NCBI RefSeq assembly: GCF_001186125.1
Contig: NW_014040514.1
Span: 156,087 to 192,263, forward strand
Source: Sphaeroforma arctica JP610
Taxonomy: Eukaryota
Reading direction: 5' to 3'
Length of the DNA: 36,177 nucleotides
A program made the position numbers and the translations under genes. The notes below the pieces were generated by a model, which was given only the letters and a program-made list of their open reading frames with translations, was not told where the DNA came from and did no database searches. Shown one piece after another: positions 6,860-33,105 of this stretch (its first letter is position 1; each line of letters opens with the position of its first letter).

Positions 6860-8960
6860 TGGAGCTCGTGACATCATATCAGCCTCAAAATTCCAGTCAC
6901 CCGGTATATGTCTGATATATATGTTGTGTCTTTGAACTTCCTCGACCAGGCGAAGAACCTGATCACCCCTAGTAGATACTGGGAATTTCATGTGTGGGTA
7001 GAAGAGAGATATAACGGACTTGTGATCAGTCCATACATTTAAAGGGTGGTAACTTGGTGTGATAGGGATTTCATCTTTATCAAAACCATATGCGATGGTT
7101 TCAAGGTCAAAGATACGATATCGAGACTGGGCAGGATTGGGCTTGGTAGAACGGTAAGTAACGGGGAAGAGTCAGTCGGCACCAGTAGTCTAAAACTTTT
7201 TCCTGGGTCAAGGAGAGGTTTTGAGTCCTGGTATAGTTATAGGACACGATAACTGTAGAGCTTTCTTTAAGTGAGTACTCTCGCGCCCTGAATGGTCAGG
7301 GCGACGTGCCGATTGACGCTTGGTAGGTGTTGGTCATCTGAGTGGCGGCTCCTTAGAAGAGGAAAGGATCTGCTGAAACATAAGATTGGCTTTCAAGGCA
7401 GAATCAGCTTGGTCCGCCCGTTTGGTACTGAGGGGCTGGTAATATCCATTTGGGAAAGCTTGGAAGGGGGTTCATCTTGACGCGGTATGCGCACGAAAAG
7501 TCCTGAACCAACATCAATGGGCCACACATCTACAAAGAGATGTAGATAATGGGAGGCTTCCGGAGTCAAAAGCATGATGACACCCTTAATGGCCTCTATA
7601 ACCTATCGGTAAGAAGCATATGTAGCAGCAGTGCATACGTAAGGTACCTTTTCCTTTGTCGAATCAGTGAGTGGCATAAAGATCGAAGCCATGTTTGGTA
7701 CAATGTACTGTGACTATCAAATCATGGTGGCACAGAACACTTAGACCGCCGGTCGAAGGGAGTTGAGGGCCTTTAAACGGACTTGACTAACAGCAGTATA
7801 TGTAGATGATGGGAGGCTTCCGGAGTCAAAAGCATGATGACACCCTTAATGGCCTCTATAACCTATCGGTAAGAAGCATATGTAGCAGCAGTGCATACGT
7901 AAGGTACCTTTTCCTTTGTCGAATCAGTGAGTGGCATAAAGATCGAAGCCATGTTTGGTACAATGTACTGTGACTATCAAATCATGGTGGCACAGAACAC
8001 TTAGACCGCCGGTCGAAGGGAGTTGAGGGCCTTTAAACGGACTTGACTAACAGCAGTATATGGATGTATTGTAACACGACAACAGTATGCTTTCATACTG
8101 TCACGTAAGAGACAAAGATGAGGTTTTGACGCACGTAAGCGTACACCAGCCTTGTAACAAATACGTACCTAAGTAGGCAAAAGATTTCTGTATCGAGTAC
8201 TTGCTCGTGTTCCCCAATGCGACATTGTACCGTAATCAACACGGTGGTGTAACACATCACGTAGGTGTTGGAAGGTCTCATCCTTGATAGACTGAAGTAT
8301 TAATGTCATCATCTCGACACCCAAAGTCCCGGTATTAGGACCAACCATCTTCTCCTGAGGTTATCCAGGTAAGATAATCTCTAGAGAATTCAGCGTGCAG
8401 GTTATATTCATTGTAGAAATGATGTCTGTCTCCACGACGTGTAGTAAACACATCAAAATACGATACTAAAACCTACTGAGTCTCCCTGAGGCTCAGTGCG
8501 GTGTATTTATTCTTATATTTGATTGTCTACGTGGTCTACAAATAATTCACCTCGTGTGAATTAATTGTAAACTAATTCTAACTCCACACTGATAGTGGTT
8601 TAAGGGGACTTTTACTACAGACGGATATGGTCATTTCATTCTTGTTTTGTTGGTAACGGGTAGGGATGTACATGAAAGTGTACATTATTGATTTTGAAAT
8701 TCTGGCAGTAGCGAATTTCCTTGGTAGAGGTAGGTATAACCCGAGGGTTGTTTTGGGCTAAGACTGCACTCGACATTCAGAGGCTATAAAAGTTTCCTTT
8801 TTCAATAATGCCTGGCTTGAAGTCTCGAGAACATATCATTTCTTCCTGTCAGCGTATAAGTTCTTGATTATTCTGTTTGTAGGTTTTACAATGAGTAGTA
8901 AAATTATCCACAAAAGGTATCTTAATTTCATACCCGTGAATACTATTGTAGTTATCTGGG
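6860..8960 (-). pseudogene. pol: G1 reverse transcriptase and RNase H remnants
   Basis: KPGIIEKG; KAGVRLRASK; YIVPNMASIFMPLTD; LHLFVD...VGSGLF; KPILCFSRS; VWTDHKS; IRHIPGDWNFEADMMSR. Confidence 0.8.
7541..8060. repeat. Near-perfect 260-bp tandem duplication inside G1 pol
   Basis: 7541-7800 and 7801-8060 are essentially identical; one difference seen near the start. Confidence 0.95.
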
Positions 8961-9619: not shown

Positions 9620-9698
9620 ATTACCAAGGCATACGACAAGGTGGCTCTCCCGCGCCTGTGGGTACTTCTGCGCCACCATGGAATACCCAAAAACTGGA

Positions 9699-9980
9699 TG
9701 TAGAGTTTGAGAGTAGCTCATAAGAAACGACCAGAAGAAACAATAGACCTCTTCTCAAGTGCGAATCCTACAGCTAGGTAAAGGTCCTAGGCTGAGATAT
9801 AATATTTTCTACACTAGACTCTCACACGAGTCCTGGTATCATCTACCGGTACTCCCGCTATATTTTTGATCACTCTATCATCAGAAATGTTGGATCCTAG
9901 ATCCAAAACTCAGTATTTGATGATCCTGGGGTTTGGATTTAGGATTGGCTGTTCTGATAATCTGGCCCCTGGATGCTACA
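9699..9980 (-). repeat. G2 3' LTR (282 bp, with small internal deletions)
   Basis: Direct repeat of 18551-18883 with TG...CA termini. Confidence 0.95.
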
Positions 9981-9990
9981 GCCCCCCAAC
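9981..9990 (-). other. G2 polypurine tract
   Basis: GTTGGGGGGC immediately precedes the 3' LTR in element orientation. Confidence 0.7.
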
Positions 9991-10255
9991 TTTATGCTTC
10001 TCAGCCTGCGTAGGAATAAAAAGTGACATCTTAAAGGACTGGATTATCTAGAGGTTGGTGTTTCGTACAGGGAAAAACTTGTCCCGTAGGGGGCATTGAA
10101 AAACCTGCCACCATTCTCTATTTTAACATATTACTTGTTAAATTAATTTATACTAAATAACAGGAGTACTCTACCACGCCCATCGGAGTCAGTCTTGACC
10201 TGTGCTCTCGGTCGATCTCAACTTGGCTTAGGGAAACACATCTCAACGGTGGCTC

Positions 10256-11660
10256 TCAACCGAGTCTTTGGTCCTTATACCTCTGGTGTGTGGGCAGAGC
10301 ATGCGTCAAGGTGAAAAAAGTGGGAGTGTCCTTTGGTGTCAGTGAAACTTGGCTAAGTTCCCGCCTCGTGCGCTGCCTGTTGCTCGCTGATCGTACATCA
10401 GTGCTGGTTGCTGTTGACTTCTTCGGCCTGGATTGCCTTCGCTTACGTCGTTTACTCTGTCGATATATCGTAAGAATATCTGGATCTGCGATGTCTGATT
10501 CATGTGTCCAGGTGCGCTCTCCATCTGTCCATTGCAGTAGGTAGTCCTGGGTTCCTCCGCCTCTTGTGGATTCTCTGTGGTCTAGTATGGAGGATAATTG
10601 AGTCTCTTCTGATGGTTGGACTTGATTGTTGGTAGTGAATTCTTCGGATTCGCTAGCCTTCTTGACTAACCCAATTAGCTCATCATTGACTGAGTTGGGA
10701 TATTCGGGGGCGCTAGTTCCATCAAGGTTACAGACGAAATATCCGTTGCCCTCTTTGCTTGCTATCTTGTATGGTCCTCCATATGGTGCTGTCATTTATC
10801 CATTTCACCTAGGCAACAAACCATCACAATATTCCCTTCTTGGAAGTGTACATACTTCTCTTGAAATTTTCGATCAAATGCTGCGCGCATTTTCTTTTGA
10901 TATTGTGCCACATTGGCGTCTAGTTGTGGTCGTATTGACTCTTCTAGATTCTATAGTCGTGTTTCCCATGGTGTTGTTGTACCCGGTGCATTGACTGTCG
11001 TGTCATAATTGGTGAGTTTGTTTTGTCGTCGCCCATAGTACACATTGAACCTTGGTGATTTGTGTCTGCGTGACGAACGGTGGTTGTGGCCCATTTGGAC
11101 AAATGGTAGGCGTGAGCACCAGCTGCCTGGATTTTGTTCAATAGAATTTCTTAGTAAAGGAATGAGGCCTCTGTGTGAGCGCTCCTTTGCTCCCATTACC
11201 TTGGGTTGATATGGTCTGGACACTAAGTGTTGTGACGGTGCCTGCTCAATGATTTTTGAGAGTATATCATTCACGTATTTTGTGCCCTGATCTGTCTGTA
11301 TGACTTGTGGAAATCAATGTTCACACATAATTGGAACTAGTGTTCGTGCAACAGTGGCTGCCGATTTGTCCATCATCGGTCTCAGTATAGCGTATGATGA
11401 ATACACATCTAGCCATACCAGGACGTACGTGTTGCCCATATTCGAGTCTACCAAGGGACCGATGGTATCCACTTGTATCCTATCGCCCGGGAATGCGGCT
11501 GTTATTGATTGTAAAGGGTGGAATCCTTTCTAGTGAATTTTTTTCTAGAGACATGGTACACAGCCCTCAATATATTGGTTGACATGTTCCTTCTGTCGAG
11601 ACCATGTGTGGCCATCTAGTGTGAGTTTGTTCACTGTTACTTCGGCAGTGTAGTGACCTA
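10256..11660 (-). pseudogene. G2 integrase with GPY/F motif and chromodomain (~10455-10600)
   Basis: IQVDTIGPL...YVLV; IQTDQGTKYVN; SRPYQPKVMGAKERSH; YGGPYKI; LSSILDHR...DYLLQWTDGERTWTHESDIADPDILTIY. Frameshifted. Confidence 0.9.
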
Positions 11661-11764
11661 CTGTGTAGAGCTATGAGTGTGGCTTTGTCTTCATACGTGA
11701 CTGTGTCTAGCTCTGCTGTTTCGTCCGCGATGTGTATGGGTGCAATGTTCACTGCTGGGTGTGT

Positions 11765-12159
11765 TAGTTTTTGGTCAAAATATGGAGACATGGTGTTTTG
11801 CCACAAGCTGCTGTGCCGTTCTTTAGGAATGTGTTGTTTGTGTTCTCGACTATCATCAGATCTTGTTCAAGTAATGACAAGAATTAAGGGAACCACGTTG
11901 CGCTTGGGTAGTATGGGACGCATATTGTAATGTATGTGGCTTCCTCTATGACTTTGTCTAACACGTCTGGTATAAGTTCCCAGGGAGGATTCGCCCATGC
12001 ATTTATTTCATCTGCCCACTTTTGTAGTAGCGCGTTTTGTACTTTGGTATAGAACTTTGCGGTCTGAGCATTGTGTGCAGCTGCAAATAAATCGATGGTG
12101 AATTTTTCAAACACGCGTTCTGCATCTTGAAAACCCCGTGGAGATAGTTTCCAGTCTAT
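11765..12159 (-). pseudogene. G2 Dam-like DNA amino-methyltransferase domain within pol
   Basis: In frame with RNase H: IDWKLSPRGF...FTIDLFAAAHNAQ..KFYT...NAL.Q.W...NAWANPPW (11980-11991)...ICVPYYPSATWFP*...NTFLKNGT..CGKTP. One internal TAA. Confidence 0.85.
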
Positions 12160-12269
12160 GGCAAACACTCGGATGGGCATGTTTGTTTCTAGGTCAGTGT
12201 ATTCTTGACCATTGTGTATGTGCTCATTGGCTTCTTTCAACACATTCGATGTTTTGATGTTGAATATGT

Positions 12270-14040
12270 CTTCATGTAATCGTGACAATTTGTCAGCTAC
12301 TTCATTATCTTTGCCTGGTACATGTATGATAGTGAAGTGGTGATGTAATGTTTTCGCTATCCATTTTGCGAGCATGGGATGCAGTGTTTGTTGTTTGTTC
12401 ATCTGGCATAACGCTTTGTGATCTGTCCACAATGTTATATCACCGCTCTTGATGTATTCCGAAAAAAATTACAGACTGTATACGAGTGCTAACAACTCTT
12501 TAGTATTTGTTCCATATCTTTGTTGTGCAGGGTTGAGACCTTTTGAGAAATAGAGTATATCTCTTCTGACTCCATCTGCAATTTGGAACAGATATCCTCC
12601 TATGCCATAGTCACTTGCGTCGTTCATGATCTGAAACGGTACTCCATCTACTGGGTACGCCAAAGTTGCTGAGCATGCAATGGCATGTTTGAGTTCTTCC
12701 CATTTCTTAATGAGTTCTGGTGTCCAAGGATTGGCTATGTTCTGATTATTTTTCCTTTTATGAGATTGTGGAAGTGTTTTGTTATGTGTGTGAACTGAGG
12801 TTTGTGGTCTCGCATGTAATTTGCTAGACCGACTGCTCGATGCAATTCTTGGCAGAGGCCAGTCAATCATGCGTTTCTGTTTCTCTGGGTCTGTTTTAAG
12901 CCCTTTGGTTGTTACTTTGACGCCTAGTATGTTGACTGTCTCGACTGCAAACGCACACTTGTTGTGATTTAGCCTGAAGTTGGCAGCATTAAGTCGTTTG
13001 ATGACTTCGCGTACTGTTTGTCTATGTTCTTCCTCTGTCATACTGGCAATGACCATGCCATCTGCATATACTTGTACTCCTTTAATGTCAATGAGGAGGT
13101 TGGCCATCACGCTTTGGAATTGTGCTGTTAATGAATGTAGTCCAAATGGAGCTGACTTGAACGAGTATTGTGCTCCTCTCCATGAAAATGTAAAGAAGTG
13201 TTGGCTATTCCCATGTACTTTATAGTGATGGAAGCCTCCAGTTAAGTCCAGTTTGGAAAAGAATTGTGCACCTTGTAGGTTGTGGAGTACTTCCTTTATT
13301 TTTGGTAATACGAATTTGTCTTGTTCATGTTAATAATTTACGTCTCGTAAGTCTAAACATGTGCGTACCTTCTTTAACAGACCTGTCTGTTCAAATTCTC
13401 CTATGGGTAGTAGTGGTAGATTCACTTGTGTGGATGTTGTTCTTTTATATATGTGTCCATCTTTGACCCATTTCTGACCGTTTTCATATGTTTGTGGTAT
13501 GTATTTGTGTTGAACAAAGTTCTCTTTAGCATGACGAATGTTCTTGGCTTTGACCTCAATCTTGATATCTCTACCACTGATCCTGGTAGATTGCAGTGTA
13601 CATCTGGTGGGACCTGACCATTTTGTTCTAGCAAGTCTGAGAGTGATTTTCTAAATCTTTCCTGTTCATGTTCAGGGTCTTCTTCATGTGGTGTGAGAAG
13701 TTATTCCCACTTGGCATCTGTTGGTATCAGTGGGTTGATTATCCCTGCTAGGTATATGCCTAAGTATGGTAGGATGTCCATACCTAATAGAATTGGTGAT
13801 TTCTTGTCTGGGAGGTCAAGTACCTCAAAGCAGTTTGACGTTTTTCTACCGCCGTAATTTATATCGCATACTTCTGTGGAACCTGTGTGTTGTACTCTTG
13901 CATCGGATTGTGCGAGTTGTATGTACCCAGGTTGTGCTTTTACAGATAAATGTAGTTCAGTTACTACACTTCGGTCCATACAAGAGCGTTGTGCTCCTGA
14001 GACTACTAGTGCATTCTATGTGGTGCCATTGATTTATATG
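12270..14040 (-). pseudogene. pol: G2 protease, reverse transcriptase and RNase H
   Basis: ALVVSGA (decayed DSG); ILLGMD; FSKLDLTGGFH; VYADG (YxDD-like); NDASDYGIGGYL; ELLALV; WTDHKAL; HVPGKDNEVADKLSR. Confidence 0.92.
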
Positions 14041-14099: not shown

Positions 14100-15878
14100 A
14101 TCATTCGCATTTACTAACAACGTTTCTTCACCAGTGTGTGTGTTCACAATGTCTACCATGTTTATCATGTTAGCATCCGACCGCCAAGCTTTTCATCGAT
14201 CTTCATCCATCTCTTATACCTTATTGCCATTTGTAATGGCCAACTGGTCGATATGGACGGGTTGGTTTTGTCGCGCTGCTCGAGCTTCTGCCTTAAGGCG
14301 ATTGCTTTCGCCTTTGTTGGGGCATTTGCTGAACGCATGTGGTGAAGGGTTTATACCGCAGTGTGGGCAAGGTTGTGGTCCTCGCGATGCTGGGGTGTCA
14401 TTGGCCTGTCCTATGGAACGACCTCTGCCTTGCCCTCCTGGTGGACCTCCACCTCTTACCCCCTCTTGGTGATCTCCCCCTCTTGGTGATCTCCCCCTCT
14501 TGGTGATCTCCCCCTCTTGGTGATCTCCCCCTCTTGGTGATCTCCCCCTCTTGGGGATCTCCCCCCTCTGGGTGGACCTCCTGTAGGTATTTCTAGTCTT
14601 GGGCGAGTGGCTCGTGGTTCAAGAACAGTTGCGTTTCTCGCTCGCTCGTTTTCACGCTTGCGATTAGCTTGTAGTATTGTTGCTTGTCTGATCATGTCTT
14701 TAGTGAGATCATGAAACACCTTTTCTGAGATGTCAGACAAGTGTCCACTACTACCATCTGGTTTCGTCTGAGCTTTGATCAGTTGTCCGTTTCCGCTTGC
14801 AAACCGTACATGACTAGTACTTGGTAACGTGATGCTTTGAGGAATTGCCAATTGATAGCCACTCTCTCAGTAGTGCCCTTGTAGCGCTTCTCTAACTCAA
14901 ACATTGTGCGCCGCAACCGTGCTGCCCGTACTTTAACATTCATACGAGTGTCATATAAGTCGTTGAGCCACTTCTCTAGTAGATAGTCTACTGGAATGCG
15001 ACGCAGGTTGTCAATGATTAATATATTGTAGTCTTCCACATCAGTGAAGTCTTGCCAAAGCCTTTTGGTACTACGTATATTATTGAGTCTGACTGTCTGT
15101 CTGAGCAGCTCTTGTACTAGTGAGAGGCACTGTATTAGTGGCATGTTCGTGCTCGCGAACAGGTCTTTGGCTACAGATACAAACTCAATTGTGTCACGAC
15201 AATCAGCCATGCTGACATATTTGCCTACTGGCCACTTAGGGAACTCACTCATCTTGAGTAATTTGGAAGTTCTGGTTCTGATACTTTGTCCCCTGCGTGA
15301 GATCTAATTAGAGTTAACTCGCTCATAAAACTACTAATCGCAATGCACTCATCGTGATCACTTTTGTCGCAGTTCTTCATAGCTTTATTGTGTAGCTCTG
15401 CTAACCCCTCGTCTAATACTGGTATCACTCGCTTTGGTTGTTGGTCATGAACTACTTTGCGAAGTTTGTGGAGTGCTCGTATGTCAATGGGATCGTGTGC
15501 TGTTTGTGCATACAACTTGTCTACTAGTATGTCTACTATGTAGTAGTTGCACTCATAGATGGTCTTGTCCAAGACTATGTTGTACTTACTCATCGCTGGA
15601 TCCATTGGAGCTCTTGCTGGTGTGGACTCATCGTCCATGTGCATGTTGCCTTCTCTATTGGGTGGAGTGGTGGTACGAGAAGATGTCTGTGAAACTGGCA
15701 TCGTGTCTGCTTCTACCGGTCTTGTTCTGGCAGTGCGACTTGTGCTCCCCCGTGCGTGTGTACGACTTGAGCTTACTTGTGTGCGTAGGCTCCTTCGTGC
15801 TGCGTGTGTTCGTTGGTATAGCGCAGACGTCATTGACTGTTCTGTGTGATCAGTGTTCAATGCGATGTTAAAACTCAT
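14100..15878 (-). pseudogene. gag: G2 gag (frameshifted) with zinc knuckle
   Basis: Consecutive ORF pieces 15878-15249, 15252-14779 and 14851-14456 upstream of the protease; CPHCGINPSPHAFSKC knuckle at ~14325-14372. Confidence 0.75.
14459..14560. repeat. 17-bp minisatellite x6 (CCCCCTCTTGGTGATCT) in G2 gag
   Basis: Five exact units and one variant unit counted directly. Confidence 0.95.
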
Positions 15879-16698
15879 CGTATTCCCGAACTTATAATGT
15901 GTGGTTCGTTGGTAATGCGTTTGTTCTGTGTCAAAATCGATTTGTTACCTTGATGGGGCTTCCTCCGTGGTGTGCGGTGGCTGTGATGTACGCAGCGTGT
16001 ACCCCTGTTTGATTGAATTGACCGGAACCGTGGTACCTGGGTTTATTTTGGTTTTTTTTGGTTTGAGCTGATAAACTTTGGTTTCTGTCTCGAATTTGGG
16101 TATAAACTTGGTTGTCTGGTTTAGTCTTCTTGGTTTATGGTTTTTGTGTTTTTAAAATTTCTATGATTACGAAGATGCCAAAAATTCCTGGGCTTCTGGT
16201 TTTTTATTTCGTCCTATAGTCTTATACTGTGGTTGTACCGAACTTGGTTTTGTCTCTGTGCTTGTGCAGTATGCAATGTGTTGCATTTGGTTTGTGTACT
16301 TTCTATCACTATGTAGTCTGTTGTTGTTAGCATTGATGTCTTGTTCAAGACCGTCTGTTGTCCTTGTGTACTGTGACACTTGTGGTTATTGTATTGTGAT
16401 GCCTGTGCTTCTATATAATGTTTGGCGTTGTAATTTATTCAGCTCTTGTGTTTAGGCTATGCTGTACGTTGTGTGTGTGGCTTCATACGTCGTATATGTT
16501 TCTGATGTCTATGTTCTTACGATTGTGTATCGTATTCTTGAACTTGTGTGTCTATGGACTGTTGTGTCCCTGGACCGTGGACTGTGTTCTGTGATTGTGT
16601 GTGTTGATGCCACACCAAGGTGATTTCGTACTCAATTGTTGTACTTTGTTGTCCATGGAGTGTGGATCGTGCCTCTTAACCTTGTGTACTAGAGTAGA

Positions 16699-16818
16699 GC
16701 TTGGGATTGTGGAGTACAATACAAGTTATTTCGTGTAGCGCTTGTGATTGTGGAGTGCAACCCAAGTTATTTCGTGTAGCGCTTGTGATTGTGGAGTGCA
16801 ACCCAAGTTTATTTCGTG
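16699..16818. repeat. 41-bp tandem repeat x3 in the G2 leader
   Basis: Unit GCTTGTGATTGTGGAGTGCAACCCAAGTTATTTCGTGTAGC; a diverged copy lies near 17142. Confidence 0.9.
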
Positions 16819-18550
16819 CTCTTTGATATTGACACATACTTTTTCTATGATTCGTTGCGTTTTGCTGGTCCATGTGACTTTATGTTTTAAAACTAATTTA
16901 GCCGTTTGAATTTTTGAATGTCTGTGTCCATGGATTGTGGAGTGTGTTCTCGTAGTCATTACTGTTGTTCACACTACGTTTTTATGTGCACTTTATTCTT
17001 GTAAGTGAGTGGCCCTCGCGTGTGTACTAGTCTTCCTAGTTCTCACTGTGGCCAGAATTAAGCGTGAAGTGTACGCTATTGATGGATGCTAATGTCCATG
17101 GATTGTGGACTGTGTTTTCAATTCTTAGCTACGAGTGTATAGCTTGTGATTGCGGAGTTCAACCGAACTTACTTGTTCTCTCTTTAGCTTGGGGATTGTT
17201 ACTTTGTGACTTCCCCGTAATTAGTGGTGATTTGATGGTGTAGGTGATTTTATAGTGTGAATATGATGATTTCGCTTGAGTTTGGTGTTTCTAACCTTGT
17301 TTATGTCCGGCTACTTCTTTATCCTTGTTAGTTTCTGTGCTTGTTAGACACTGGTCCACTTTAGACGTCTGTATTCTGTGTTATGTTGTGTCTCTTGGTA
17401 TGAGATCGCACGATTTCTCCTCTGAGATGTTCAGTAAGATGCTCACCAGGTATGTGTGTGTCACCAGTTTGTTTGTTTCGTGCGAGTTGTTCTTTTCTTG
17501 GCTTGACGCGTTTTGTGTGCTTAATTCGTGTCGTAGTTTTAATTGAATTATGATTTGGTATATTTCATCGTTCTACATTTATGTACATCCGTTCTTCCCC
17601 GCTAGGTGTATACGTTGTATGACAAACGTAGGTTTTTTGTGTCTGATTTGAGGTTAGCCTGTTGATAAGTGAACTATTTTTCTTGTTCACGTATTGTGAT
17701 GTGATGTATATTACGTTAACTTCTTACTTCGCTTCTCTTGTCACCGTCTTGAAGTCTGATCACGTGTCTTGTCAAGTTCGAATTTGATTCTCCGTGCTCA
17801 TAGTTTGTTTTATATGTAGCTTTGTGTTTCCTTGTTCTACTAGTTCTTCTAACTTTAGTTGTCAATTCTTTAGTAGGATCTTTATGATATATTTTATAAT
17901 GTCTGCTTTTACTTAGTTGTGATTTCATATGTACAATCTAAGTTTAGCATGCCCCTAACCCGTACTTGAGTGTTGTTGCAGGCACCGTGAATTCCTCTTT
18001 GTAATTCTCCTGTGTTTTTGTCCTCTGACTTTGGTTCTTTGTGTCTCCCTAGCCCCTCTGTAGTTGAGTGTTAGTTAGTCTGGATACGTACAGAGCTTCT
18101 TTCTCTTGATAGTCTATAAAAATAAAGAAGATATCACTGTGACACTTTCTTGAACTTTCTACGTTCCCAACTTTGAACTTTGGTTTTATCTGTATATTAA
18201 GCAAGTTGTCACTGTGACACTTTTGTGTTTTTTTAATGTCTGAACATAAACAATAAGTTGGGTGCGCTGTTTCTAACGCTTGTTTTGCCAAGAGTACTTG
18301 CCTTAGCTCACCCTAGTCTTACTTACTTGTTTTGTGGCAGTGTGATATCTTAGGACGAGCTTGGCGTCTTGGACACTTAATCTTTTCGGTGAAGTTTCTC
18401 TTGTTCTTCCCTACTTCCTGTTGTGTTCTCCGTCCCTCCCTCTGATTGTTCTGCGGCTTCGATATCAAGTAGTCTTCAAGTTCTATCATTCTAGTTTTGT
18501 TAATATTCTTAACTATACTAGACTTACCGTGGTAAAGATATTGTTAAAAA

Positions 18551-18883
18551 TGTAGAGTTTGAGAGTAGTCCATAAGGTACGACCAGAAGAAACAATAGAT
18601 CTCTTCTCAAGTGCGAATCCTACAGCTAGGTAAAAGTCTTAGGCTGAAGGACTCGCATTGAGTCTTGTTTGGTGTTTAGTATTTTCTACACTAGACCCAA
18701 TATTTGCTTAAGTGTTTCTCTCACACGCGGGAGTCCCGGTATCATCTACAGGTATTCCCGTTATATGTCTGATCACTCTATCATCAGAAATATTGGATCC
18801 TAGATCCAAAACTCAGTATTTGATGATCCTGGGTTTTGGGTTTAGGATTGGTTTCTCTGATAATATGGCCCCTGGATGCTACA
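18551..18883 (-). repeat. G2 5' LTR (333 bp)
   Basis: Direct repeat of 9699-9980, followed by TSD TGGA. Confidence 0.95.
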
Positions 18884-20837
18884 TGGATCAACTGCATCCG
18901 CGCACTATTTGAGAGGGTCCCTACCCGAGTGACATTCCGCGACAAAAGCTCTCGCCTATATTTCATAGAACGAATGGCATCCTACAAGGCTGAATCGTTG
19001 GCCCCCAGCTCTGTATTGTCTACATGGATTCCTTGGCTGTCACGCTACCACAGTTCCGGCCCAAGCTTCCCCAGTCTTATCTATTTATCGACGACACACG
19101 GATCCAAGCCCCCCAACCGGTTCCACTCCAGCCCTTCTTAGACGACATTGATGCATGGGGACACAAATATGGCCTCGAACAGGGTGTCATCAAACTCTGG
19201 GTACGATCTACTGACTTGCGACCCGCGGCGCCAACCCTCCGCATAAAAGGTGAGCTTATCATACCGACGCTCGCCGATGCATCTTGGAACACACGTTACC
19301 TCCCCCCTGAAGATATTACCCGGAGTTCCCACTCCCCCACGAAATATCAGGGATCAATCTCGCCAGACATGGAATCCCTGATTGCAGCATTGTCTCTTGG
19401 TATCGCCTCCTTCCGCGCTTATGGCTTCCGTGGCTTCAGCTGGCGACACCCCTGCAATCGGCTGGTGCTGTTCAAAACATTCATTTTATCCACGGCTACA
19501 TATGGCCTGAACATTCTTGTCTGGGCTCCGCCTATATGGAAGGATGCGTTGGACCTCCTGTTCGAGCGCTATAACTCAGCACTCATACAAACAGCAGCCA
19601 TCATCACGGGCACTAAATATTCTAGGTTTTCCAAACATAAAAAGAACTTACTCCACTTTTGTGGCCTGCTCCCCACACGACCATTCGCGGACTACCTCGG
19701 AGGTTGCCTGGGAATACAACTCGACTCAATGGCCAGCATAAACCCACTCACCCCTCTGACGCAACCCGCCTGGGCCCACAACAAACCATCATTGCGCTTC
19801 CCGTACAGTATCTATGCCTACCTGAAAACTGTATACAAAACCACGGGCGGGCACACACCCGACCATGTAGCCATCCGCCGACGCTGTGACGACATTAGGA
19901 AAAACTCAACGAAACGATGGTCCAACAAGGAGATCGCGGCAGTTACCCGGCGCCAATACTACTACTAACTGGTCATGGGCAAATTGCCAACCTCAAATCG
20001 GGACAAAGCCAGACACGACTGCTTCAATCGCTGCTTCGAGCCTACACCAATCCGGCTATGTGCTGTCGATAGTTGTAACAAATACGTACATGTTGTATTC
20101 ACATTGATCGACTACCGCACCGACGGCTGTCTCTGCCCTGTCTGCCCCGGTGGCCCCAAATTCACCACCAGCCGCTTAACCTGCGCCCAGGAACTGATCC
20201 GACACACCCTGGTAGGTCCAAAACTGCTTCCCATTGGCCCCGACCTCTTCCAGCAATCACAGGGGCGCCAGGATTTCTACGGTATCTGGACCCTTTACAA
20301 ACACCTGGTATCCTTTCTAGCATGCAAAACAGCCTCCGTACCCACACTTGTCTCTGACACATCAACAAATGTTCCCCATACCCCGGCTAATCACGCTGTT
20401 GAAGTACTACTTCCAAATTTCGGTCTAAACCAAGTCATCGCGTCTGTTGATTCCGCCTATGATACTTCCGATCCAGGTCAACCAGCACATACCGAGTGCA
20501 TCCGTGGTCTGGTGCGGTATCGGTTCACTCCCAAACTCGCTCCTCAACCGAATTATGATGGATAACCTGGTCCTACTCGACATTTCGTACTCTGCACTAA
20601 CCCTTTCCACGGCACTACACGGTGCAGACCCGGTTCGTACCACAACACAAGGTGGGCACTCTACTTAGTAGGTCAGCAAGCGAATACGTGGCACACTCGA
20701 TGATGTCAGTTTTTTGTCAGCACCAGCCTGAATTGACCCAACGCATATCCTCCGTCGTCGACTCACTTGGCCCAAACTTCAAACGTGAATTTACTAACCA
20801 CTTCTTCTCATCGATCTTTCCCGAACCTCTACAATGA
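18884..20837 (+). pseudogene. Non-LTR RT ORF, C-terminal part (RT, thumb, Cys-rich region, extension)
   Basis: ORFs 19024-19968 and 19975-20565 in the same frame, separated by one stop; FIDD; LFKTFILSTATYG; CPVC. Confidence 0.8.
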
Positions 20838-23806: not shown

Positions 23807-24184
23807 NNNNNNNNNNNNNNNNNNNNTATATTCATACGCATGCATAAAATACATCGAAAATTTTTATTATGTTATATGTATGTGTACAGTGTGTAGTCTT
23901 ATATTATTCCTCTCTTATAGCTGATATTATAGCATCATATGTTTGTCGTTTCGTGGGATCTAAGAGTACTCTGCTTATACTCTCTACCATGTATAGCTTT
24001 GATCCACGTGTTATACCGAGCTCATCGTACATACTGCGTGCCTTCTTAGTATTCCAATACAATACTTGACCTATTCCTAATTTTTGTAGGTCTTTCAACA
24101 GAATGTACCTTACACGCAGATAGGCAACAGAGTTCTGCACTGTTCAGATGTTCATCTTCCCGTATTGTCAACCTCCATTGTTGT

Positions 24185-24298: not shown

Positions 24299-25034
24299 CC
24301 TCCACATTAGTATTTTGGAATATAAACGTACTCTTAAAAATACGTAAAACGTACTCTTAAAAGACGTAAACTTAGGTTTTCCTTAAATGGGTTTTAACGG
24401 TTTTTATTAATTAAATACATTTTCCAATTTACATATCAGATATTTGGACAAGGCCATTAAAAGGCCTCAGTAAAATACCAAATATAAGGTTTGTATTAGT
24501 TATATTAATAGAACTATATTTACCTTCCAAATCCATATCTGAATACTTCGGTAGCGAGATGGCTAAACTGAACATAGGTTTCTAAGGACTATTAGCGTTG
24601 CTTAGTTTATCCTCCGTTCAGCCAACAAGATGTGCCAGTCTGATGAAGGCCAAGTCGGTAATTCTTGATAACTGGCAAGTTAATGGTTAATGCAATAACA
24701 ATGGACATAAAGAGTTATATATAAAAATCTTCTCATGATAGGATTTTATCAGTTTCTCGGATTAGCCCCAACGAAATATACCATAATTTCTAATAGAGCG
24801 ACAACGAAAAACTAAATAAAATCCCTTCGGCGAAAACAGTACTGAGAGGATTATATGTAGGCAATGTCTCAGCCTCACAATCCCTCAGAGTATTGCTGTT
24901 TTCACGAGACATACCTAACTTTACTAAAAGACTCATTTCGTTTATTTACTCTTAAATTTTGATATCCTTAGACTTAACCTAAGAGTTTATTTACTCTAAG
25001 GCGTTAATATCCCCTTATTAGACCAAAACTTGCA
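24299..25034 (+). repeat. G3 5' LTR (5'-clipped)
   Basis: Direct repeat of 32389-33105. Confidence 0.92.
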
Positions 25035-25161
25035 CATTTTAAAGTTAGTAAAGGTATTAACTACTTAGACTACTTTAACGTAAAGGTAGATAACTACCAC
25101 GAAATTTTTCTTAAGCACAGTCATTCCTTAAAATAATAGACTGAAGTCATAAGTTAAGATT

Positions 25162-27400
25162 ATGACTGAGAAAGACAATACACCTGCAAAGAAACGCAAG
25201 GCCGAACGTAAGAAAATGGAGAGAGAAGCCGCTAGCGCTGCCGCAGAAGTAACCGCAGCTGCTGCCGATGCGTTTAACCGCACCGTAGCCGAAGCACTTG
25301 TGTCCGACAATAATAGCCAGGACAATGCTTCATATAAGGATGTAGCCACTCCGATTAAGAAGACTACTCCTACAGATGGAGCCCGAGGGCCAACTATTGC
25401 CTCAACTTCGAAGCTCACATTTGCGAAGCCAAGAAGTGAGACAAGGAACACGTCTCAAGACGCCCCAATCAACTATTCTGATGAAGCTCAGAAAGAAAAG
25501 TCCCCAATTATAGGGGACAAAGACGAATATCAGAAGGTACCTATACCGGAACCAGAAGAGGAGGCAAGCTCAAGTGGCAAACCCGAATCTACGTCCGAGA
25601 CAACTGAGCCAACGCGCATAAGTTAGTTAACTACTGAAAACACTGATCTGATGAATCAGTTAGCCGCCCTTATGAAAGGCATGCCTGTTGAACATGTAGA
25701 TCGAATGTATGGATCAGGAAAGCACGCACAGCACTTACGCGAGCATGTTTATCCGGACACTACTGAAGCCCTACAAAAGTGGACAGGACGTCGGCTGACA
25801 ATTACGCCCGAAAAGCGTAAGGACCTGAGCGCCAAACCTGTGGCAGATAACCCAGATGTGCTCAGCGTAACTATACCTTACGAGGAGCTACCACCAGATG
25901 TCCAGGAACTCTATTCGCCTGTTCTTTCACCCGGCCATGAGTAGCATGTCCTTGAGGGTATTATAGACCCAGAGGCAGGTAGAAACGCTCCGCCACCTTT
26001 ACCCAACTGGGATGACAATCGTCGGAAACCAGTTAAGACTGGGTATGTCATCCAGACGCATGAATCATCTAAGATTTTAATACCAACTGCTATCCAAGGA
26101 ACAGAGCACCGAAAGGCCTCGATCATGGACTTTACACGGGGTAATAAACATTCCCGTAAACGTGTTAACGATGTCGAATTTAATCGCTTCGATCGCACCG
26201 CCTTACACTAACCCGCAGAGGATTTCACTCTGACGAGGTGACCGAACTTAATAAATCGGTCAACGAGTACACCATTAAGATGGAAATCGCCCATGACGTG
26301 CACCGTGCCGATGACGTATCATATTTTACTATTATGATCGCGATTAAGCATAAGCGCATCGATCAACTACTTCAGGCCCAACGTGGACAAGACCGCCGGG
26401 ATAACCAGAAGTACAAGGGACAGATCAGTCGACTTAAGTCGAACTGGGATGCCAACAGTAAGCAGGTCGAGTTTATAAACAACCATGACCTCGACACGCT
26501 AACCCGTACGCTTAATACGTTTACGGTCATGCTGGAGACGAATGATATCGCTCCCCAGCAATGGATTTATGCTTTAATGCAATCGTTTGACCCTACGGAA
26601 CAAGTTACTTGATCCTGCAGCGACACCAGCTTGAGCTAGACACTTGTCGTGACTGACCGGCTGTGTGTTAGTTGGTTACGTCCTTATTAAGCAAGGACAT
26701 GCGCAGTGCAGTACTGATTTCAATCTTAACTGAACCAGTTGAAAATAATTGCATTCAGAGTTACATTCTGAAACTTGATGCTGACCTTAAACGTCCAGAT
26801 ATAACAAAGGACAAGGCTCAGCGATGGTACGAGTTCCTGGTTATGCATGTTTTCTGTAAGAACATAGAGAACAACGACCGTGAAAGTCTGTACACCGAGT
26901 TGCGACGTAAGTACGCAACTGAGGCTCGAGATAAGGGACATGAAACAAAGTTTCATCTATCCCGACTTACGTGGGAACAGTTTTATGATACTGTATCCAC
27001 TCTTTCCCCCGCACACCGAGTAACCTCGAAGGGAAAGGCGGTAAATAAGAAACCACACGAGCTCCCTGATCAAGGATACCTCTCACACCAGACGTCAGAT
27101 GATAAGCCTCATCAGACGCGTCCTAACCAGACACGTGCTTGCGACTCTACTCAATCAACGCGACCCAATAAACGGGCACGCGCGGAGCCGAAGAACAAGG
27201 AACCTCCATATAAGGATATTAAGAAATATGCCGACGCACAGTGTGGGTATGACATGTACCAATTGACCCCTAACGGTTATTGGAACGGAAGACATGCACC
27301 CACCTGTACACACTTGTTTATTTAGTGCGACAAGTGTGAGAAAACCAATGGCTACCAGACCAAGTCTTGCGACAAGAAGCCCGACATTAAGTTGGAGTGA
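25162..27400 (+). pseudogene. gag: G3 gag (long, fragmented)
   Basis: Chain of plus-strand ORF pieces from ATG 25162; decayed knuckle CDKCEKTNGYQTKSC just before the protease. Confidence 0.7.
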
Positions 27401-27474
27401 AAGTACTACCAGGTACAATCGCTACAAAGAAAATACGACTACTTAGATGAGCGTGTAATAATACCTATATATTA

Positions 27475-28545
27475 CAACGGAAATAAAGTCCTTGCATTGA
27501 TTGATCATGGTTCAGAAATTTCATGTACATCCGACCGCTTTGCATTAATGAAAGACATTGAAAGGCGAACTCGAACTACTCACCTAATTTTAGTAGATGA
27601 TTAAACTTCTATTTGTGATACCATGGTCACATATGTTAGAATCTCCATGGCCGATGATAGGAATATCACTACCCAAGCTGTGATCGTTAAGATGTCACAG
27701 AAGTACGACATTATAGTCGGAATGAGCGATTTGCTCACGTTAGGGGTAACCGTAACAGGCCTACCCAACAACATAGATCCATTAAAGGATCAGTCAGACG
27801 ATAGTTGTCTAAAACCATATACACCACCATCGGACACAGTCAAGGAACTAATTCCTGGCTTTGGCGATAAGATAATGGATCTTATATTAGTAAATAAGAA
27901 GATAAAAATGACCGACTGGGCGAATCAACGGAAATAAAGTCCTTGCATTGATTGATCATGGTTCAGAAATTTCATGTATATCCGACCGCTTTGCATTAAT
28001 GAAAGACATTGAAAGGCGAACTCGAACTACTCACCTAATTTTAGTAGATGATTAAACTTCTGTATGTGATACCATGGCCACATATGTTAGAATCTCCCTG
28101 GCCGAAGTCCTTGCATTGATTGATCATGGTTTAGAAATTTCATGTATATCCGACCGCTTTGCATTAATGAAAGACATTGAAAGGCAAACTCGAACTACTC
28201 ACCTAATTTTAGTAGATGATTAAACTTCTATATGTATTACCATGACCACATATGTTAGAATCTCCCTGGCCGATGATAGGAATATCACTACCAAAGCTGT
28301 GATCGTTAAGATGTCACAAAAGTACGACATTATAGTCGGAATGAGCGATTTGCTCACGTTAGGGATAACCGTAACAGGCCTACCCAACAATATAGATCCA
28401 TTAAAGGATCAGTCAGACGATAACTGTCTAAAATCATATACACCACCATCGGACACAGTCAAGGAACTAATTCCTGGCTTTGCCGATAAGATAATGGATC
28501 TTATATTAGTAAATAAGAAGATAAAAATGACCGACTGGGCGAATT
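27475..28545 (+). repeat. Triplicated protease region in G3 (copies start ~27475, ~27926, ~28105)
   Basis: VLALIDHG(S/L)EISC occurs three times, each followed by the same in-frame DD* stop. Confidence 0.9.
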
Positions 28546-30000
28546 TCCGGTGTAACGACGGATACGTCAGCCTTGACTTAACCAAGGTAGATTTTACTAC
28601 GCTCAAATGTCCTTCAAGAAGCTATGTTTCTTGGAGACACGAAGTTGTAGTTAAAGAACAAGTCGAGAAATCGTTATCTGATAGGGTAATCGAAATCAAT
28701 TGCCAACAAACGCCAGTTAACTTAGCATTATTGGCAGTTGATCAGCATAACTCTGACGGAACATTTAAGAAAGTCAGAGTATGTCTAGATATGAGCCCAA
28801 TAAATAAGTTATTGCCGACTCATAGTTTTCATCTCCCTCGTATAAACGAGTTACTGAGACGAATGGAAGGTGCTGACAAGGGTATCATCAATTGCAAATT
28901 TATGAACCCCATCGGAAGTACTTTAGTTTAACTTGGAAAGGTAAACAATACAGGTTTAGAGGAGCACCTTTGGGGTTGCGCTCTTTACCAGCATTTTTCC
29001 AACAAGTAACGGAGGAAATGTTTGCAGACATGCCTAACGTGCAAGTCTATATAGATAACATAGTCATCTTTTCTAAGACTAAGGGCGAACATACCGCATT
29101 AGTCAAACGAGCCCTTCAGAGACTCAACGAACAAACCTTCAAGATTAACGAGAAGAAATGTCACTTCGCAATGAGCGAAATAATGCTCTTAGGCTATCGT
29201 ATATCTGGGTAATGTATTAATATCGACCCTGGTAAGGTGGAACACCTGTTAGATTGATTAACACCAACTACAGGAAGAGATGTGAACAGCATGTGTGGGT
29301 TTGTAAACTTCTTTTCAGATGGAGTACCGCACTTAGCTGAATATCTTAAACCCTTTGGACATTTAAAATGTCATAAAGGCNNNNNNNNNNNNNNNNNNNN
29401 NNNNNNNNNNNNNNNNNNNNNNNNNNNNNNNNNNNNNNNNNNNNNNNNNNNNNNNNNNNNNNNNNNNNNNNNNNNNNNNNNNNNNNNNNNNNNNNNNNNN
29501 NNNNNNNNNNNNNNNNNNNNNNNNNNNNNNNNNNNNNNNNNNNNNNNNNNNNNNNNNNNNNNNNNNNNNNNNNNNNNNNNNNNNNNNNNNNNNNNNNNNN
29601 NNNNNNNNNNNNNNNNNNNCCAGTCGATGGCGTGCCTTTTGAAATAGCAACGGACGCATCAGACTTAGCACTCGGAGGAGTACTATACCAGGTTATAGAT
29701 AATAAACATAGGTATATACAATTCTTAAGCCGAGCAATGAATGCATCACAGTTGAATTACCCAAGTGTGAAGCAAGAGCTACTAGCCATAGTAGCAGCTT
29801 TAACACATTTCCACGATTACTTATACGGAACAGCATTTACGCTGATGTGTGATCCGAAATCTCTTCAATATATGAAAGAGATGAAACCCGACTCACAATT
29901 ACTGAGTCGCTGGCAAGATACAATATCAAAGTTTAATTTTGATATAAAACATCTGCCAGGAATATATAACCATTTGCCGGATATGTTATCACGCTTTGTA
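28242..30000 (+). pseudogene. pol: G3 reverse transcriptase and RNase H (spans an N gap)
   Basis: RVCLDMSPIN; YRFRGAPLGL; VYIDNIVIFS; TDASDLALGGVL; ELLAIV; HLPGIYNHLPDMLSR. Confidence 0.93.
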
Positions 30001-30036
30001 CCGGACTTTAATAAATCCATACGTGAGTTACTAGCC

Positions 30037-30440
30037 ACTGACTGGAAGTGTAATCCCAGGTGGTTTGAACTGGCTCAAAAGATATTTGGGCCACATACAA
30101 TTGACATGTTTGCTGTACATCATAATGCACAACTATCGAATTACAGGACTTTAAATCATCCTTTGGGAGACGCCTTTCAAATAGACCTCTCCAAACATAA
30201 TGCGTGGGCTAATCCACTATGGCAGTTAATTACCCAGCTATTAAATTATGATCATATACACAAAGCTACCATCACGTTGTGCTGCCCACTACAGAGTAAA
30301 GATCCATGGCTCAATAAATTGATAAGCATGATACAATGCGAGCCAATATATTTAGATAGGGAAGTAGATACTTTCCTATATCATGGTACCCGAGCCGTCC
30401 AGAAGACGCCCTGGAGACATACTATAATATGTCGTATAGG
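30037..30440 (+). CDS. G3 Dam-like DNA amino-methyltransferase domain, open and in frame with RNase H
   Basis: TDWKCNPRWF...FGPHTIDMFAVHHNAQLSNY...DAFQIDLS..NAWANPLW (30211-30222)...TLCCP....PW...DTFLYHGT...KTPW. Confidence 0.85.
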
Positions 30441-30889
30441 TCCCATTGGAACAACCAAATGGACCCCTTCTGAGACCTTCCTTAACAAGGTCAAGAATCA
30501 GAGATTCCACTCTACCCAATTGAACGTTAAGCAGTTCAAAGGCAACACAGCGCTTAAAGTCTGTGCACAAGAAATACAATCTACTAATGACACTGTTAAG
30601 TAGCGTCAGTCTCTAGCTAGGACTGTTTAATAACATAAAGTCCAAGCTCGAGGTCTTTCAAACCCTATTTTGAAAGGCATTAATGAAAGACAATCCTGAA
30701 GCGTATACACATATAATGCGACTATTTAATAAGTCAGGTGTATCTAACGAACATGAGCGCACTTATGACACTCATGCGAAAGAAGGACAGGAGTATGGAA
30801 ACACTACAGACTTAGGACCACGCAAGTGGATTCTCAACACCCTACCTTTATTCTGGAGGAATAGAATGATGAAAACATTCTTGCTTGGC

Positions 30890-32237
30890 TGACGCAAAAC
30901 CATAAGCTGAGGCACCAGAACGTAGTAGAAGCACTTAAAGATGCCAAGCGAAATGGGTTAGCGCACCCTAAGCTGGCAACTTTAGTGGATAAAGTATATC
31001 AGTTATGTACAGACTGTGATCCCAATCAGATCAAACGCTATGGGTTCGCACCACCTAAGAGTGTGACCGAAGATGTTCCATGACGCAGGGTCATCATCGA
31101 TCTGGTTGACCTGCCTACGTCCGAGTACACAGGCGACCGTTACGTATGCCACTTCTTTGATGTGACGTCACGGTTTAGCTTGCTCTATCCATTAAAGGAT
31201 GAGAATACGCGGACCGTGGCAGAATTACGTTGCCAAGTCTTTGCTGACCACGGGTGGCCGGGTATTATGTGCTCTGATAACGGTAGTGAGTTCTGCGATG
31301 ACGTAATGGAATCGCTAGTACTTGTATCGGGAATATGCCATAAGAGAGGTGTGCCATATAAACCGCAAACGCAAGGCGCGAATGAAACGCGCCATAGAAG
31401 ACTTAAGTTCTTCTTACGCACTGCATTAACGGATGATGCAGATGATTGGCCGTACCACCTTAAGTGGGTACAAACACAGATGAACGAGTGTAGCCTTTAA
31501 CGAGGACGAACCTGATCACCATGAGTTACCATGGTTAAAGAAGGTACAACGCATACACAACGTTGTATATCCTTGCTTGCGTGAGACACGTAATGTGGCC
31601 TTATTAAAAAGGCAAAATAGATGGAATGCTACCAAAAAGATAGCAGAGTATCAGGTTGGAGTCAGAGTTAACATCCGTCAACGTAATTCCGATGCTACTG
31701 TACTAACATCGAAATGGATAGGACCATACATAATCTCTGTAGCCGACACTAAAAGTGGAACTTATGAGGTTAATAACCCCGACGGTTCTAGTACTTTAAA
31801 TATAGGCACTAGTCGAATTCCGAACTGAGATTATTCTCGCAAGAAGACATGATTCTACTGCACCTCTTGACCGCTCCGAATTCAAAGATATTATATGGAG
31901 AACGGATAAAGGAGGATATACATATTATCGTTCACGCTTTATAGACGGTACAATCGCTGAGTTAACTTCAGACGCTTTTGACAATCAGGATTATTTAAAG
32001 GCCTTTAACAGAAAATAGCGGAAACGCTTACATAAGTCACAGGCTGAAAAAGATAGTATGTTCCTATCGTCTGCAGGCACGGAAGTTAAAACTTACCCGC
32101 CAATAGCACTTATCCCGAGCTTTACTGCTCATCCTTCGTATGTTCCAAAAACATTGAAGCGTAAGAAACATCCAGTCGACCACCACGGACCTACTGGACC
32201 TAAACCTAAATCTCACAGGGTAATCGAGAACGCTTAA
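30890..32237 (+). pseudogene. G3 integrase with GPY/F motif and a divergent chromodomain-like segment (~31878-32015)
   Basis: H...H...CTDC; IIDLVDLP; SDNGSEF; PYKPQTQGANE; WIGPYII; EFKDIIW...YYRSRFIDGT..LTSDAFDNQDYLKAF. Confidence 0.88.
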
Positions 32238-32363
32238 CTTCTCCGCCTGAGAAACATCAACTATAAGTTATGCTACTTAATGTTTTCGACCCGTTTTCCC
32301 TTCTCGCTTTTTGACCCATAATCAGCTTGAGTGAGCAACTAACCTCTCCTGGGTCTCAAAGCT

Positions 32364-32375
32364 GGGTGGGGGCTG
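32364..32375 (+). other. G3 polypurine tract
   Basis: GGGTGGGGGCTG lies directly before the 3' LTR. Confidence 0.7.
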
Positions 32376-33105
32376 TGTAAAAGCCGGGCCTCCACATTAA
32401 AATCTTGTAATATAAACGTACTCTTAATAGTTCGTAAACTTAAGTTTTCCTTAAATTTGTTTTAACGGTTTTTATTAATTAAAAATATTTTCCATTTTAC
32501 GTATCAGATATTTGGACAAGGCCATTAAAAGGCCCAAGTAAAATGCCAAATATAAGATTTGGTCTAGTTCTTTTCATAGAAATATATTTACCTTCCAAAT
32601 ATATTTATATCTGAATACTTCGGTAGCGAGATGGCTCAACTGAGCATAGGTTTCTAAGGACTATTAGCGTTGCTTAGTTTATCCTCCGTTCAGCCAACCA
32701 GATGTGCCAGTCTGATGAAGGCTAAATCGGTAGTTCTTGATAAGTGGCAAGTTATTGGTTAATGCAATAACTATGGACATAAAGAGTTATAAAAAAAATC
32801 TTCTCATGATAGGATTTTATCAGTTTCTCGGATTCGCCCCAACGAAATATACCATAATTTCTAATAGAGCGACAACGAAAAACTAAATAAAATCCCTTCG
32901 GCGAAAACAGTACTGAGAGGATTATATGTAGGCAATGTCTCAGCCTCACAATCCCTCAGAGTATTGCTGTTTTCACGAGGCATACCTAACTTTACTAAAA
33001 GACTCGTTTCATTTATTTACTTTTAAATTTTGATATACTTAGACTTAACCTAAGCGTTTATTTACTCTAACGTGTTAGTATCGCCTTATTAGACCGAAAA
33101 TTACA
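32376..33105 (+). repeat. G3 3' LTR (730 bp)
   Basis: TGTAA...TTACA termini; direct repeat of the 5' LTR. Confidence 0.95.

Follow-up and report, generated by a model that had tools for sequence, protein, structure and literature searches.

The 36,177-nt window analysed here, the whole stretch of Sphaeroforma arctica DNA that was examined, contains on its minus strand a 9.2-kb LTR retrotransposon, hereafter G2, which encloses the interval under study. The two LTRs of G2 are direct repeats that both start with TG and terminate in CA, 92–93% identical (repeat families D8 and D10) with indel differences besides, and this single pair, together with its target-site duplication, bounds all of the pol domains (Table 1). 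Within the gag-like region lies a tandem array of a 17-nt unit (14459-14574); neither the gag-like ORFs nor the ORFs at 18994-20562 match a Pfam family. Transposons are nested in one another across the window, which also includes two assembly gaps (N runs at 23807-23826 and 29381-29619).

Table 1. Features of the G2 element, in window coordinates. P0001 is an intact relative described in the text.
Feature	Position	Strand	Evidence and remarks
Target-site duplication TCCA, 4 bp	18884..18887 (upstream copy); 9695-9698 (downstream copy)	-	Flank sequence
5' LTR	18551..18883	-	TG...CA ends; LTR-vs-LTR alignment
gag-like region, three shifted frames	14217..15944	-	ORFs; Cys/His knuckle-like stretch inside
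Aspartic protease	13704..14015	-	PF13975, E 6.3e-7
Reverse transcriptase	12913..13557	-	PF00078 (RVT_1), E 4.1e-20; alignment to P0001
Gypsy-type RNase H	12352..12726	-	PF17919, E 2.3e-19; PF17917, E 7.4e-13; stop 12471-12469
Dam/PCIF1-like N6-adenine methyltransferase domain	11791..12162	-	PF05869, E 5.1e-13
Methyltransferase-integrase linker and integrase zinc-finger region	11530..11790	-	Alignment to P0001
Integrase catalytic core (rve)	10954..11529	-	PF00665, two halves around stop 11316-11314
Integrase C-terminal region	10592..10950	-	Stop 10953-51 just upstream; frameshift ~10795
Divergent chromodomain	10457..10591	-	W45 and TWT/TWE-like motif present; basic tail after
Purine-rich tract adjoining 3' LTR	9981..9997	-	Likely polypurine tract; role inferred
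3' LTR	9699..9980	-	Shorter than 5' LTR through indels

The pol region of G2 is ordered as protease (PR), reverse transcriptase (RT), RNase H (RH), methyltransferase (MT), integrase (IN) and chromodomain. The interval to which the initial annotation drew attention, 12159-10455, agrees with the domain boundaries, the methyltransferase starting at about 12162 and the chromodomain ending at about 10457. That annotation had also counted only one TAA after the WFP motif, and here the sequence is considerably more damaged. More specifically, along the path homologous to P0001 this interval carries five in-frame stops (11886-84, 11547-45, 11532-30, 11316-14 and 10953-51) and three frameshifts (~11791, ~11660 and ~10795), placing the G2 chromodomain out of frame with the integrase core. 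The first stop, a TAA, falls in the methyltransferase, whose last conserved strand (about 10 codons) is lost at the ~11791 frameshift, and the next two stops fall, with the ~11791 and ~11660 frameshifts, in the linker and zinc-finger region; these two stops and a gap near 11789 are absent from the other contigs compared. PF17921 is matched in the relatives at E 3.1e-5 to 1.7e-3 (18.9–24.5 bits, under the 25.5-bit cut-off). The two PF00665 halves of the G2 integrase core are each below cut-off (E 2.6e-5 and 6.1e-3), and the rve domain of P0001 scores 47.3 bits. Matches in the ESM Atlas are chromoviral integrases only, from mixed taxa, all with scores <0.9.

Upstream of the methyltransferase, the reverse transcriptase is interrupted by a stop at 13332-13330 and its catalytic box reads YADG, compared with YVDD in relatives; alignment to P0001 places a shifted stretch near 12850-12750, and the N-terminal region that includes the protease is 63% identical to P0001. 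Given five stops, three frameshifts, a mutated RT motif and LTRs that are only 92–93% alike, G2 is dead, and none of the pol proteins can be produced from this copy. Its family is large: when the contigs of four public runs were compared with a 2.2-kb stretch of G2 (10259-12468), run X1 yielded 931 contig pieces with an identity of at least 85%, which indicates a high copy number. G2 itself is one decayed and non-coding member of this Ty3/gypsy-type LTR family.

Natural relatives of G2 have escaped this decay. P0001 and P0002 each consist of one 1288-aa ORF with the order PR-RT-RH-MT-IN-chromo, and they are 79% and 77% identical to G2, respectively, over the RH-MT ORF. A word-indexed search returned further long or intact ORFs of the same order, namely P0003, P0013 and, representing a second clade, P0005, P0006, P0008 and P0017. 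The full domain order is found in single uninterrupted ORFs of 995–1905 aa in P0001, P0002, P0003, P0043, P0046 and P0058. The window itself holds a second element of the same order on the plus strand (24365-33093), 31–36% identical to G2, in which NPLW replaces NPPW. The intact relatives bear out the architecture suggested by the initial annotation, since in them RNase H and integrase flank an amino-methyltransferase and the integrase ends in a chromodomain. They also displace G2 from the role it had been given as best template for reconstructing an active enzyme: the G2 copy is heavily broken, whereas P0001 and P0002 are natural intact ORFs.

To place the methyltransferase in a wider family, its G2 sequence was used as query in an exhaustive HMMER search, which retrieved 892 representative proteins at E <=0.001; the 150 nearest of these are proteins of retroelement type. 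Domains were scanned in 56 of these best 150 matches, those of at least 560 aa. DDE-integrase domains are present in 10 of the 56, a Chromo domain above the Pfam cut-off in three (P0046, P0058 and P0113), and a phage-integrase SAM-like domain, as in the DIRS type, in one; a further one is a copia-type polyprotein (P0133). Most of the other scanned matches are RT-RH-Dam ORFs of the DIRS type, about 600–700 aa long.

Elements of this design have been described recently. Fernandez-Moreno et al. (bioRxiv, May 2026; 10.64898/2026.05.21.726589) report 10,030 eukaryotic Dam proteins, mostly borne by retroelements, and use the name DAM-LTR for non-DIRS LTR elements with a Dam domain. According to the same preprint, DAM-LTRs fall into five lineages, chromodomain-bearing elements make up 30.9% of DAM-TEs, and elements combining Dam, DNMT and a chromodomain also exist. 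In two ichthyosporeans, the DAM-LTR copies are reported to exceed other LTR elements in both 6mA and expression, and RNA-DNA intermediates of reverse transcription are proposed as the substrate. Domains from DIRS, DAM-LTR and adintovirus sources were expressed there in dam-minus E. coli, with no rise in 6mA reported. The hypothesis of an element that both writes and reads chromatin is already put forward in that work (10.64898/2026.05.21.726589). Both the architecture and the functional idea being in the preprint, the design of G2 is not new.

G2 is almost certainly an element of the DAM-LTR type: it has direct LTRs with a target-site duplication, PF05869 within pol, gypsy-type RT and RNase H, and a DDE integrase. 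A DIRS identity was considered and rejected, as the LTRs are direct and no recombinase domain is present, a Pfam search of the G2 ORFs for a phage-integrase or tyrosine recombinase having found none.

The methyltransferase of G2 is encoded in a minus-strand ORF of 194 aa (12468-11887) that carries the C-terminal part of RNase H (PF17917) and the phage-type Dam family PF05869 in the same frame. The claim that intact DLFAA and NPPW motifs lie in frame with RNase H is thereby confirmed; they reside in TIDLFAAAHNAQ, which holds DLFAA, and in AWANPPWELIP. PF05869 is matched with 49.5 bits (cut-off 28.1), over profile positions 12-105 of 169 only, and with 58 bits in P0001. It is the only significant Pfam methyltransferase family for the G2 clade, and several other affiliations were set aside. 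A bacterial N6_N4 domain of the N4CMT type was rejected, PF05869 being the sole methyltransferase family matched in G2. Membership of PCIF1/CAPAM by sequence was likewise rejected, as the Pfam search of the G2 clade gave no match to PCIF1_WW (PF12237) and a WW domain was not found, leaving a likeness of fold only. The non-specific phage methyltransferases Hia5 and Hin1523 were dropped as PF05869-type relatives, since their motifs are DPPY and FxGxG (PMC3299994), which marks them as enzymes of another kind.

The initial annotation had staked its reading on NPPW being a feature of the family, and the motif is kept in G2 and in every G2-clade relative. In an alignment of 73 relatives, D occupies the acidic position of DLFA in 71, and the successive positions of motif IV hold N in 55, then P in 68, again P in 72, and an aromatic residue in 68. 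Identity between P0001 and P0003 amounts to 61% for the methyltransferase, compared with 59% for RT and 68% for RNase H. Nowhere in pol is conservation lower than in the 30-residue linker that joins the methyltransferase to the integrase, with 14% identity between P0001 and P0003 and 37% between P0001 and P0002. By these sequence comparisons, the methyltransferase is conserved as well as the reverse transcriptase, and the linker is not.

The AlphaFold model of the P0001 domain, built with the alignment of its relatives, reaches a pLDDT of 93.9 and shows a compact SAM-methyltransferase fold of about 140 aa with NPPW and the conserved acidic DLFA. The best solved match to this fold is PCIF1/CAPAM, which methylates adenosine at N6 in a cap-specific manner on mRNA (Foldseek E 1.5e-4, TM 0.65), and an independent all-against-all aligner also places PCIF1 at the top, with 135 of 149 residues superposed at an rmsd of 3.1 A (Z 10.5). 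The next solved folds are rRNA adenine methyltransferases (Z 8–9.3), followed by the Dam enzymes of T4 (8.1) and E. coli (8.0) and by M.TaqI (7.7). At the level of sequence, a search of PDB sequences with the single methyltransferase domain gave chance-level matches only, and the family profile found PCIF1 alone, weakly (E 0.029 and 0.071), at the motif F-(D/E)-x-F-A-S...N.

These likenesses give weight to the possibility that the domain is a PCIF1-clade enzyme working on RNA, in which case it would place m6A-type marks on the transcript or template of the element itself, altering the stability, translation or packaging of that RNA, and the 6mA seen in DNA would be a by-product of transcription. 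Both the top fold and the next-best folds are those of RNA-modifying enzymes, PCIF1 is the one PDB sequence that the profile finds, Iyer, Zhang and Aravind (2016; PMC4738411) assign the DIRS1 domain to the PCIF1 clade of M.EcoKI/M.TaqI-like enzymes, and the E. coli assays, as reported, did not find 6mA in DNA (10.64898/2026.05.21.726589). The sequence nonetheless favours PF05869, with PCIF1_WW absent or at E >=0.03, and since no PF05869 member seems to have been solved, a ranking by closest solved structure is biased. The 135 aligned residues are moreover spread over PCIF1 positions 233-652, so that a domain of this size has no room for the extra parts of PCIF1. Likeness of fold among N6-adenine methyltransferases cannot tell a DNA substrate from an RNA one. 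We regard this RNA reading as unlikely.

A second alternative is that the domain is catalytically inert and has become a binding or scaffolding module, for example a holder of template nucleic acid or a mimic of a host factor. Such a role was proposed for DIRS1 by Iyer et al. (2016; PMC4738411), who judged the DIRS1 copies likely to be inactive. Inspection of the sequence found no canonical FxGxG SAM loop in the domain, motif IV opens with a residue other than N in 18 of the 73 aligned relatives, and the E. coli assays reported in the preprint were negative (10.64898/2026.05.21.726589). An idle domain would sit poorly with the fact that the G2 clade, like its LTR relatives, keeps D-x-F-A and N-P-P-W, with the pattern of the remaining motif IV positions, which is typical of an active site in use, or with a degree of conservation equal to that of RT, and we consider this alternative improbable.

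That the methyltransferase and integrase are neighbours by artefact, through insertion of a DIRS fragment into a gypsy element or through mis-assembly, is barely credible and already close to refuted: the window does contain a transposon nest and assembly gaps, and the preprint flags chimeras in Euglena (10.64898/2026.05.21.726589), but the methyltransferase of G2 is in frame with RNase H, one LTR pair with its duplication encloses everything, the order is repeated in the divergent second element of the window, and the whole order recurs in single long ORFs from several sources.

The chromodomain of G2 is cryptic, with most of its aromatic cage gone. The Pfam Chromo model gives E 0.024 and 15 bits for G2, against a cut-off of 25.1 bits. 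Eight relatives scanned with this model are all below cut-off: six have matches in the same C-terminal place at E 3.3e-4 to 0.055, and two have no match. The best score among G2, P0001, P0002, P0003 and P0013 is 17.4 bits. Because the domain never attains the Pfam cut-off, a domain-based pipeline would likely file the G2 clade under 'non-chromodomain' DAM-LTRs.

A four-sequence profile of the G2 clade matches the chromodomains of CBX1/HP1 with a best E of 5.4e-6, and of the 33 matches listed at E <=1, all but one are chromodomain proteins, the other being the ribosomal protein eL14 at E 0.38; with a 10-sequence chromodomain profile, E is 1.6e-10. The predicted structure is a chromodomain fold of three strands and a helix, with a core pLDDT of about 90. 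Among the PDB matches listed by Foldseek, all are chromo or chromo-shadow domains, with rmsd of 1.3–2.9 A except for one row at 8.2 A; the best E is 2.5e-3 for this very small domain. The assertion in the initial annotation that the integrase ends in a chromodomain is thus upheld for the family by profile and predicted fold, while the Pfam score stays sub-threshold and, in the G2 copy itself, the domain is out of frame.

Of the three cage aromatics of HP1 (Y24, W45 and Y48), only the equivalent of W45 was found in the G2 clade. When the domain is aligned to CBX1 by HMMER, T or S stands opposite the first tyrosine and a deletion of three residues takes in the third aromatic, while W45 and the TW(T/E) strand are retained. 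The P0005-type clade retains a larger share of the cage. A group I ('classical') chromoviral chromodomain, such as that of MAGGY, which binds H3K9me2/3 (PMC3605345, PMC3350952), is ruled out by the absence of two of the three aromatics. The absence of both the first and the third cage residue instead likens the domain to the group II chromoviral chromodomains, for which PMC3350952 gives no known histone-mark partner. To describe the G2-clade chromodomain as a 'reader' is therefore a prediction from sequence, and the ligand is probably not a canonical methyl-lysine.

Taken together, the evidence is probably best explained if G2 is a decayed DAM-LTR whose intact kin methylate their own replication products, with the chromodomain tethering the integrase. 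In such intact members, the methyltransferase would place N6-methyl groups on adenines of the replication products of the element, namely the cDNA or RNA:DNA hybrid that the neighbouring RT-RNase H synthesises. In this way 6mA would come to lie on new insertions, where it may act as a permissive-chromatin mark in hosts that use 6mA. The integrase would be held to chromatin by the chromodomain, whose partner, given the incomplete cage, is probably not a canonical methyl-lysine. The parts of this model differ in strength. We lean slightly towards the domain being an active adenine methyltransferase in intact copies, and we propose only tentatively, at somewhat less than even confidence, that the substrate is the DNA or hybrid of the element and not RNA.

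The initial annotation had reasoned that, if the methyltransferase remained attached to the integrase after proteolysis, one complex could both read chromatin and mark the new insertion. This picture is weakened by the divergent linker and by the ORF order of DIRS elements, in which the homologous methyltransferase ends the RT-RNase H ORF. The poor conservation of the linker fits either a flexible connection or a cleavage site and proves neither. Against the main reading stand the identity of the closest solved structure, an RNA methyltransferase, the missing FxGxG loop, the two absent cage residues and the negative E. coli assay; the 6mA enrichment described in the preprint (10.64898/2026.05.21.726589) is in turn correlative and could follow from transcription.

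A bolder synthesis of these observations would make the retroelement 'Dam' not a Dam for DNA but a minimal adenosine methyltransferase of the PCIF1 clade, travelling with RT-RNase H and modifying the template RNA or the RNA:DNA hybrid while reverse transcription proceeds; it would likewise make the cage-less chromodomain a reader of something other than methyl-lysine, and the G2 clade a hidden chromodomain branch of the supposedly chromodomain-free DAM-LTRs. Action on the RNA template or hybrid, if true, would explain the silence of these domains on E. coli double-stranded DNA, yet we give the synthesis as a whole little credence and retain the methylation of replication products by intact kin as the preferred reading.

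Retrotransposons that carry both a chromatin writer and a reader of their own speak to how mobile DNA adapts to the host epigenome, a point already in print. What is added here is the PCIF1-like fold, the cryptic and cage-poor chromodomain, the natural intact relatives, and the conservation of the methyltransferase as opposed to the linker. The natural intact ORFs of the G2 clade provide a means to ask whether the domain is active and which of DNA, hybrid or RNA it would act on; its nearest solved relative is an RNA methyltransferase. Threshold-based domain calls, in addition, miss divergent chromodomains, which could shift the reported division of DAM-LTRs into those with and without a chromodomain.

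Several known systems share parts of this design. The initial annotation had drawn a parallel with N4CMT of bdelloid rotifers (PMC8885841), where a bacterial-type amino-methyltransferase and a chromodomain are likewise combined in one eukaryotic protein. This likeness stands, but N4CMT is described as a host gene outside any retroelement polyprotein, produces N4-methylcytosine and is of a different methyltransferase family, so that the parallel is one of analogy only. PCIF1/CAPAM (PDB 6irv-6is0) shares with the G2 domain its fold, the NPP-aromatic motif and F-(D/E)-x-F-A-S...N, and differs in being a host protein, about 700 aa long, that has large extra parts and a WW domain, at 15–17% identity. 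The group II chromoviruses, namely the plant Tekay, Reina and Galadriel elements, resemble G2 in their C-terminal chromodomain with W45 and a TWE-like strand and without the first and third cage aromatics; unlike G2, they are, in the accounts cited, reported from plants only and without a methyltransferase (PMC3605345, PMC3350952). DIRS1-type elements have a homologous methyltransferase in the same place after RNase H, but they use a tyrosine recombinase and inverted or split repeats, whereas G2 has direct LTRs, a target-site duplication, an aspartic protease, a DDE integrase and a chromodomain. The DAM-LTRs, as described in the preprint (10.64898/2026.05.21.726589), are like G2 in being of Ty3/gypsy type and in having a PF05869-type Dam domain that follows RT/RNase H and precedes a DDE integrase; many of them also have a chromodomain.

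A second LTR element in the window bears a methyltransferase, as does G2, the decayed minus-strand Ty3/gypsy-type element, and the two have in common the order reverse transcriptase (RT), RNase H, methyltransferase and integrase, with an identity of only 31–36%. An assembly gap (N run 29381–29619) falls within the RT of the second element. In its methyltransferase, motif IV reads NPLW and motif I reads IDMFAV, and the match to the Pfam Dam family reaches an E-value of only 1.4e-3. A putative chromo-like stretch lies at the C-terminus.

Features of the window, in window coordinates
Feature	Position	Strand	Remarks
Second LTR element	24365–33093	+	
Its LTRs	about 24365–25022 and 32433–33093	+	89–96% alike
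Tandem duplication, ~300 nt, three copies	27486–28404	+	protease region of second element; copies 68–96% alike
Chromo-like stretch (putative)	31806–32018	+	second element
G2 non-coding leader, 2.6 kb	15950–18550	-	5' LTR to gag
41-nt tandem array	16694–16818	-	G2 leader
17-nt tandem array	14459–14574	-	G2 gag-like region; 6.8 copies, 95% matches
Perfect tandem duplication, 260 nt	7540–8059		100% identical
Remnant of third gypsy-type RNase H	7171–6701	-	adjoins 260-nt duplication
455-aa open frame	33954–35318	-	PF21787 match (TNP-like RNase H N-terminal domain), E 1.7e-5
Pair of adjoining open frames, 324 aa and 198 aa	18994–20562	+	

The coding strand of the G2 leader is very A-rich, and its AT skew falls as low as -0.43. 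As the 17-nt unit of the other array is not divisible by 3, that array encodes one and the same Arg/Gly-rich peptide in each of the three frames.

Outside these two elements, the PF21787 match suggests that the 455-aa frame is a candidate P-element/THAP9-like DNA transposase. GC content in the window is highest over the two adjoining frames (0.49–0.53), and a Pfam search of both matched no family.

Among the proteins returned by the HMMER search with the methyltransferase piece of G2 is P0133, a polyprotein of copia type with the domains Retrotran_gag_2, zf-CCHC, Pol_BBD, rve and RVT_2. Its Dam match (PF05869, E 7e-11) has the protease region on one side and the integrase on the other. The Results and Discussion of the preprint on DAM-LTR elements make no mention of Dam in Ty1/copia elements (Fernandez-Moreno et al., 2026, 10.64898/2026.05.21.726589). 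The domain in P0133 could reflect another capture event or an insertion nested in the element.
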